DNA of 25,976 nucleotides, filler included, from Haplodiscus bocki (taxonomy: Eukaryota), in the NCBI GenBank assembly GCA_965655095.1. It is 2 parts of 2 records of this genome, joined end to end, with 100 filler letters (N's around TTAATTAATTAA, not from the genome) between each part and the next. Parts side by side here need not be neighbours in the genome. Positions count along the whole stretch, not along the records: positions 1 to 11,595 come from OZ296649.1; 1 more part is not named here. One strand, given 5' to 3'. Below the pieces are notes generated by a model, which had not been told where the DNA came from, did no database searches, and saw only the letters and a list, made by a program, of their open reading frames with translations. The position numbers were made by a program, and so were the translations under genes. Each line of letters opens with the position of its first letter. Position 1 is the first letter of the stretch. Of this stretch, positions 9,779-10,206 are shown piece by piece.

Positions 9779-10206
9779 TCACATAACTTTTAATCTAAAT
9801 CCACGGCCGTGCATGTCAGTGAGAGATAATATCTTACTCCTGAAATTGATTTTAAAATATTAGTCGTTGCTTGTCCAACCTTTGGATTCCTTGTTTTAGC
9901 ACTAACAGCCATACCAAAAAACGGCGCCGCTACATTGACTGCTGGTTTGAGGAATTTATTCCGAGCAATATCTGTCCCCTCGAAAATTTTTTAAAGTTTA
10001 GTTTTAATCGACCCACCTTCAAGCATATATTGATGGAGTGTAAAAGTGATTATCTTCTGGCAATTACATTTAGGGTTAGGACATTTATCATGTAGTTTTA
10101 ATATATTACCTTTACTATGTAAATTACACAATGCTGAATTTGATATAGATGAACAATGATTATTTTTGCATTGTCCTGCTTTAATAAAATCTTCTCCCCT
10201 AGTCAT
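9779..10206 (-). pseudogene. Cys/His-rich N-terminus plus amphipathic C-terminus with adenain-type cleavage sites (putative virion-internal precursor)
   Basis: Read-through translation ...MLEGGSIKTKL*KIFEGTDIARNKFLKPAVNVAAPFFGMAVSAKTRNPKVGQATTNILKSISG, frameshift, KILSLTDMHGRGFRLKVM*. Conserved in the sister copy at 13855-14286. Confidence 0.6.

Follow-up and report, generated by a model that had tools for sequence, protein, structure and literature searches.

The locus examined here raises the question of whether an element without genes for a virus shell can encode a precursor protein that matures by proteolysis in a virus particle and, if so, whose protease would cut it. Within the window (a 25,976-nucleotide stretch of Haplodiscus bocki DNA, filler included, joined from two records of assembly GCA_965655095.1), positions 9779–10206 on the minus strand hold a broken copy of a gene for a 142-aa protein, hereafter the target. 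An earlier note had likened this protein to the precursor of adenovirus protein VI (pVI) because of three sites for the adenovirus protease adenain in an element with no adenain of its own, and had taken this as a hint that the element was packaged with a protease supplied in trans.

The element and its gene map

Two partial copies (A and B) of a degraded, AT-rich element occupy positions 2669–17393, with every gene on the minus strand. They are separated by a scaffold gap at approximately 11594–11697, share ~70% DNA identity and have identical gene order. Copy A proteins come from a 339,910-bp contig and the copy B fibre-like protein from one of 216,502 bp; the copies may therefore not be adjacent in the genome. 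Copy A extends from the final 44 nt of a fibre-like gene, repeated at 11552–11595, to the left terminal repeat, and copy B extends from the right terminal repeat to just beyond the integrase. Summing the lengths of the two copies gives an element of ~10.4 kb, in which the half from the integrase to the left end is mapped from copy A only.

The element begins with a terminal repeat and the fibre-like gene (15920–17222), followed by two small ORFs of 80 and 73 aa with no known family (11090–11551; copy B ~15724–15199), a broken gene for a coiled-coil protein with a hydrophobic hairpin (10474–11086; ~200–220 aa in relatives; copy B ~15178–14568), and a ~53-aa C4 zinc-finger gene (10210–10365) with a weak DUF5679 match in a relative (E 0.009). 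The latter is joined to the target at TAA-ATG. Downstream of the target are an HNH/endonuclease VII-like gene (9158–9763; E 6e-09 in the relative L006), a broken rve (retroviral-type) integrase (8317–9174; second copy 13211–12352), three small ORFs, a protein-primed DNA polymerase B broken into several frames (PF03175; 3680–6932, ends approximate), a small ORF and the second repeat. The left terminal inverted repeat of copy A (2669–2867, with loose ends at 2668–2669) and the right one of copy B (17237–17393) are 71% identical over 160 nt, as compared between the ends of two different copies. The polymerase matches PF03175 at E 1e-14 and 3e-09. The integrase matches PF00665 at E 1e-05 in the window, under the curated cut-off, and at E 3e-13 in L008, above it. 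The host element is a Polinton-type element. It is present in very high copy, with tens of thousands of contigs per run along its full length, and eight metagenome loci (L001–L008) match this gene order, starting at the second small ORF and ending with the ORF past the integrase.

Several of the neighbouring genes drew separate attention. The HNH gene (9158–9763 and 13204–13828; L002, L003, L006 and L008) is only ~30–55% identical between lineages, far below its neighbours, as if it had been exchanged. The coiled-coil hairpin protein (10474–11086; 284–946 in L005) could be a pore-forming or egress protein, with no family match, and two small genes between the integrase and the polymerase (7458–8298) carry CxxC-CxxC zinc-ribbon motifs, also with no family match. 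At 11698–12158, after the truncated left part of copy B, lies a B-like partial duplicate of the zinc finger and the target N-domain with 90–92% identity to 14135–14575, either a tandem duplication or an assembly artefact at the scaffold gap.

What the map lacks is a capsid module. Between 11595 and 7458 the DNA is explained by genes of intact relatives, approximately 0.5 kb with a small ORF is left before the polymerase start, and across the two copies no unexplained gap exceeds ~0.5 kb. Pfam searches of 25 ORFs from the two copies found no match to capsid proteins, packaging ATPase or adenain-type protease, and three simple patterns for Walker A and Ulp1-type motifs, run in six frames, returned nothing. 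The filled ~10.4-kb gene map therefore leaves no room for a capsid, ATPase or adenain gene, and the statement that the element holds no adenain stands for these two copies.

Candidate cleavage motifs and their conservation

We applied the adenain consensus (M/I/L)xGG↓x or (M/I/L)xGx↓G (PMC7998265), where the arrow marks the scissile bond. In copy A, site 1 reads LEGG↓S (residues 62–66; 10009–10023), site 2 reads ISG and then runs into a frameshift (9838–9846), and site 3 reads MHGR↓G, followed by the 7-residue C-terminal peptide GFRLKVM (9782–9814). Copy B (13861–14286), a second lineage with one stop and two frameshifts, has LEGN↓G (14104–14090), LAGG↓T (13926–13912) and MHGN↓G (13893–13879). 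A third partial copy (11698–11865) is B-like, covers the N-domain only and stops at the scaffold gap just before site 1. The motifs are thus where the earlier note had placed them in both copies, with only site 2 of copy A truncated by the frameshift near 9836; in intact relatives this site is ISGGK or LTGGK. The helix and the peptide that the note had quoted are both present, the former being that of copy B and the latter that of copy A, and the note had missed an in-frame stop in copy A at 9991–9993 (residue 72). This stop interrupts residues 66–87 (9946–10011), the stretch predicted to form a basic amphipathic helix in intact relatives.

Three strict motifs per 142 aa arose in 0.07–0.68% of 20,000 shuffles of each of six intact proteins (P 0.0007–0.0068), and ten neighbouring proteins (1,648 aa) contained none. 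Motif density was 17.3 per 1,000 aa across 120 listed target relatives and 0.17 across 120 fibre-like proteins of the same element, an approximately 100-fold difference. A homologue search with copy A (X at the stop) found 1,402 related proteins; the best 120 of these are 73–85% identical and mostly 142–143 aa long, and at least three strict motifs are present in 70, two in 39, one in 9 and none in 2. The motif trio is real, beyond chance.

Conservation in close copies is a blunter measure. Both homologue searches with the A-lineage target were filled by copies of its own family, and among the best 120 of 1,402 the site glycines are kept at 0.91–0.97, no higher than most of the protein. Because per-column conservation is similar throughout such close copies, it cannot single out the sites. 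An extra residue at site 3 in 9 of the 120 listed relatives shifts Met to P5 and breaks the strict P4 rule, and the column count for this site (99/120) overstates strict matches because of these ~9 rows. Two of the nine are heads of clusters with 198 and 263 members; all nine retain Gx↓G, in line with the less strict rule that the mavirus protease is reported to follow (PMC6048507).

The frame-intact metagenome loci are more informative. Seven of nine loci form this set, which leaves out the frameshifted L007 and also L009, a bacterial contig with a 32-residue chance match that we rejected as a relative. Synonymous sites in these loci have diverged widely (dS 0.36–2.94), yet of 21 pairs among the seven, 20 gave dN/dS values of 0.04–0.33 and one was saturated; the target gene is under purifying selection in intact relatives. 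The adenain consensus fits all 18 site readings from intact loci, in agreement with the claim that the sites are conserved across lineages as the adenain rule permits. P4 swaps stay within M/I/L (I to L or the reverse at site 2, M to I or the reverse at site 3), and P1 varies (R, H, N; A, N) only with Gly at P1'.

Three loci have LEGG↓S at site 1, and three others have LEGA↓G or LEGN↓G. The same switch appears in more distant sequences: of 110 ungapped rows from 150 listed representatives of 660, 24 carry Gly solely at P1, 54 solely at P1', one at both positions and 31 at neither position. The associated Fisher p of 8e-08 is inflated, since the rows are related and heavily decayed and do not count independent events. 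Strict matches in these divergent, mostly decayed representatives number 46/112 at site 1, 27/81 at site 2 and 35/71 at site 3. The proposed change of site 1 between the two consensus forms is thus borne out by the loci, although it may have happened just once and then spread by descent and recombination. The N-domain and the helical middle each come in two types, found in mixed combinations that switch near site 1 (L001, L004, L005 and L006), which suggests that the lineages recombined at the first cleavage site.

Predicted fragments and known core proteins

The target consists of a Cys/His N-domain (residues 1–61), a helical basic middle (66–124) and short C-terminal pieces. AlphaFold2 predicts a small beta-rich N-domain and helices at 65–74, 76–105 and 108–123, in a model of modest quality (mean pLDDT 72, the other four models 41–58, C-terminus 40–53). 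Cys13, His17, Cys18, His39, Cys42, Cys47 and Cys49 are kept in 81–88 of 89 proteins, which suggests, by inference from sequence, that the N-domain binds zinc. The hydrophobic moment of residues 66–83, which the earlier note had proposed computing, is 0.43–0.62 (shuffle p 0.003–0.017), that of the copy B helix is 0.56 (p 0.018), and among 125 windows of 18 residues the eight that score highest begin at residues 67–74. Residues 66–87 carry a charge of +5 or +6, and the whole 66–124 fragment, in which no more than one residue is acidic, one of +9 or +10. As had been claimed, a basic amphipathic helix is thus predicted directly after site 1. The last peptide is most commonly 7 aa long (53 of 100 proteins), with Gly first and hydrophobic residues in second and last position; Cys occurs within the last 20 aa in 2 of 100 proteins, and PPxY in 1 of 120 listed relatives.

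This anatomy can be read without any protease. The glycine motifs may be structural turns, kept for folding between helices and strands, in a protein that stays uncleaved and serves a non-viral transposon as an accessory factor binding zinc and either nucleic acid or membrane: the sites fall at domain and helix borders in the model, the entire protein is conserved, one large sub-lineage shifts site 3, and our shuffles take no account of turn preferences. We hold this to be rather improbable. Turns have no need for M/I/L at P4 or for Gly at P1 or P1', neighbouring proteins lack such motifs, and the fibre-like gene suggests particles. Processing of the target by a protease, in our reading of the sequences, appears well supported by the comparative evidence.

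The earlier note's comparison with pVI holds in outline. As in adenovirus pVI, where an amphipathic helix follows the first cut, consensus sites lie near both ends, and such a helix is predicted right after the first site (PMC4246237; PMC8310329; PMC7998265); as in pVIc, a short basic C-terminal peptide begins with Gly and a hydrophobic residue and ends with a hydrophobic one, matching the pVIc hot spots (PMC4246237). The target differs in showing no detectable sequence or fold similarity to pVI, in its length of 142 aa with a 61-aa Cys/His N-domain, in having three sites, in the rarity of PPxY, which is described in pVI of all human and several non-human adenoviruses (PMC4246237; PMC8310329; PMC7998265), and in having no hexon gene alongside. 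The cofactor parallel is only partial, because pVIc is reported to have 11 aa with strictly conserved Gly1' and Cys10' (PMC4246237) and the target peptide has 7 aa without Cys; the C-terminal peptide is not a true pVIc.

Homology to pVI likewise found no backing in the searches. Pfam gave no adenoviral family at E ≤ 10 for seven relatives, a PDB sequence search with the protein P0019 gave no match, and the best profile match of the target was the zinc ribbon of ribosomal protein eS31 at a non-significant E of 0.33. Fold searches with the modest model found nothing at E ≤ 0.001 in BFVD and PDB, and nothing at Z ≥ 5 among 48,161 chains. Separately, no locus was obtained from IMG/VR when it was scanned with the target, with the alignment of its C-terminal part, with the integrase, or with two pieces and one motif of the polymerase, and a GTDB scan gave none either. 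In the Atlas, residues 58–142 fall near three unnamed clusters of 103–114 aa (scores 0.89–0.90), one of them mostly cnidarian, which point towards adintovirus Cupiennin-like proteins as a lead only. By its anatomy the target resembles a pVI- or pX-type precursor; homology to pVI is not detectable, although a remote common ancestry may exist.

Maverick PW and adintovirus Cupiennin are one and the same protein. Like it, the target is a small, predicted membrane-active protein of an animal element with a protein-primed polymerase (pPolB) and an integrase (PMC8502044; PMC8097293). As described, the Cupiennin/PW gene sits within a penton-hexon-adenain module (PMC8502044), which is absent here: the neighbours of the target, both in the window and in those loci that extend far enough to include them, are the zinc-finger and HNH genes. 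The adomavirus LO6 protein is similar by description: it is small, belongs to the virion core, carries (MIL)XGXG or L(LR)GG motifs and has itself been compared with pVI and pX. It gives lower-mass bands in purified virions and appears cleaved, but unlike the target it shares an operon with the adenain, hexon and penton genes of its virus (10.1101/341131). The C-terminal domain of the mavirus major capsid protein (MCP) also carries several GG↓X or GX↓G sites, which are cut by the MVP protease, an enzyme of the Polinton/virophage kind, to free small fragments; there, however, it is a capsid protein that is cut, by a protease encoded in cis (PMC6048507).

Candidate proteases and possible packaging of the element

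Which enzyme would cut the target is less clear than the motifs themselves. By eye, we noted in the N-terminal part of the polymerase (6138–6366) two motifs, GYCF at 6366 and NHF at 6144, 74 residues apart, that are the probable catalytic Cys and His of a viral OTU (vOTU) protease; an OTU profile search on the polymerase gave no match. OTU enzymes cleave after LxGG, in keeping with ubiquitin-type recognition of LxGG↓. Published accounts describe a vOTU domain with conserved catalytic Cys and His in Polinton pPolBs (PMC11161782; PMC8502044), and one reports that viral OTUs process polyproteins (PMC11161782). On these motifs, the element's own polymerase probably carries a vOTU-type protease. 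To say that the element has no protease is therefore too strong, supply in trans is not proven, and cleavage in cis is a live rival.

In its full form this rival has the vOTU cut the target with no outside protease needed, leaving the sites silent on any helper. We consider it improbable. The GN↓G, GR↓G and GH↓G sites have a residue other than Gly at P1 and fit adenain and the mavirus protease better (PMC7998265; PMC6048507), the profile search was negative, a full consensus site is missing from this polymerase copy where terminal protein and vOTU would be expected to meet, and the fibre-like gene would be left unexplained. As a separate observation, a QYGN stretch precedes the Cys motif by 25 residues and lies close to where the border of the terminal protein would be expected (6144–6441).

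GG↓X and GX↓G motifs are also reported as targets of the mavirus protease (PMC6048507), so that the name adenain, which the earlier note had given to the protease, is too specific. A more distant candidate is the core protease of a large cytoplasmic DNA virus (poxvirus or asfarvirus type), or a host SUMO protease, with the element riding along like a transpoviron. TAAATG, a motif annotated at poxvirus genes (PMC4542343), stands at the start of 15 of 19 listed genes in the loci (one position being mis-set). On the coding strand we counted it 24 times, where 14.0 ± 3.8 would be expected (a total attained in 2 of 300 simulations), and on the other strand 3 times. Polinton-like viruses with adenovirus-type proteases are described alongside entomopoxviruses (PMC11296320), and ASFV pS273R is reported to recognise GG↓X (PMC6048507). 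We nonetheless regard such a cutter as very improbable: GX↓G is described for adenain and the mavirus protease and not for most clan CE enzymes (PMC6048507), tight gene packing can also yield TAA-ATG, and a passenger in a large virion would need no fibre of its own.

The fibre-like gene provides an independent hint of packaging. Its family numbers 745 relatives, mostly of 434–446 aa among the 120 listed, in line with intact relatives. The stalk contains repeats with weak PHROG tail-fibre matches (E 0.015), and the confidently modelled C-terminal domain matches MAM and carbohydrate-binding (CBM) beta-sandwiches in Foldseek (E 3e-06 to 3e-05); from these we infer a fibre role. At least 11 contigs of the same size, counted by eye, appear in the match lists of both the target and the fibre-like protein, as expected for linked genes.

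Polintons are known to lose MCP, ATPase and protease in concert, and an account from 2014 noted nine cases (PMC4028283). The present element resembles these capsid-less Polintons in having pPolB, integrase and terminal repeats and no MCP, ATPase or protease; they are read in that account as a transposon state (PMC4028283), whereas the family here retains a fibre-like and a cleavable core-like gene. Retention of the fibre-like gene is unusual among capsid-less Polintons. Of the two genes, it is the core-like one (the target) for which purifying selection was measured.

Two such genes, both retained under selection, are also what one half of a divided genome would be expected to hold. The capsid, ATPase and protease genes might be carried by a second segment that shares these ends, as in a bipartite virus, or by longer members of the family, so that the target would be cleaved in the virion and the element would be no parasite. 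The part left of the integrase is known from one copy only, and contigs join across or diverge at several places. Set against this, two ~70%-identical lineages share the same capsid-less order, which L001–L008 repeat in part, and the concerted loss noted in 2014 offers a precedent for the missing genes (PMC4028283). We judge this arrangement unlikely.

We instead lean, with some reserve, towards the reading that the target is a virion core or entry precursor cut by a helper's adenain-like protease inside a borrowed capsid. In intact relatives, three motifs of the adenain type are retained on either side of a predicted basic amphipathic helix, so a virion core or entry precursor is likely. The element, whose two copies here show no gene for shell, motor or maturation protease but include this conserved motif protein, likely travels in the particles of a helper virus. 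A cut at site 1 would remove the N-domain and expose the helix. The fragment 66–124, with its charge of +9 or +10, would then bind packaged DNA or membrane and may aid endosome exit as adenovirus VI does, and cuts at sites 2 and 3 would free 11-aa and 7-aa peptides. The satellite would replicate and integrate itself, and its capsid, motor and protease would come from a capsid-coding Polinton or virophage-like helper, which is the weakest step of the scheme. With two copies and eight short loci behind it, the satellite reading is plausible.

A more far-reaching version is tentative: an animal genome would host a many-copy Polinton satellite whose own receptor-binding fibre and protease-activated membrane-penetration protein re-equip the capsid of its helper. 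Given poxvirus-type gene starts, the satellite would be the third tier of a virus chain, after a large cytoplasmic virus and a capsid-coding Polinton. A literature search of titles and abstract openings, with incomplete coverage, found no such satellite described in an animal and no report of a cleavable core protein and a fibre-like gene retained in a capsid-less, high-copy Polinton. Cleavable core proteins as such are already known from adomaviruses (10.1101/341131) and have been proposed for adintoviruses. Particles of animal Polintons are described as not observed, and formation of infectious particles as an open question (PMC8097293). In the published accounts consulted, the small conserved Polinton proteins presumed to act in virion core or entry have no tested function. 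The target family offers a sharp, testable signature: three motifs whose variation stays within the adenain rule, grouped about a helix and a short peptide. Should the satellite reading be true, some capsid-less Polintons would be more than resident transposons: they would parasitise other Polintons while retaining those parts of the virion that determine entry into host cells.

Outside the element, the window also contains unrelated repeats. Direct repeats of 190 and 95 nt at its start (9–669) form a separate family, and short repeats based on GGCGTTAACGGCG occur at 21629–22536 in two inverted clusters ~700 nt apart, possibly a small non-autonomous transposon.
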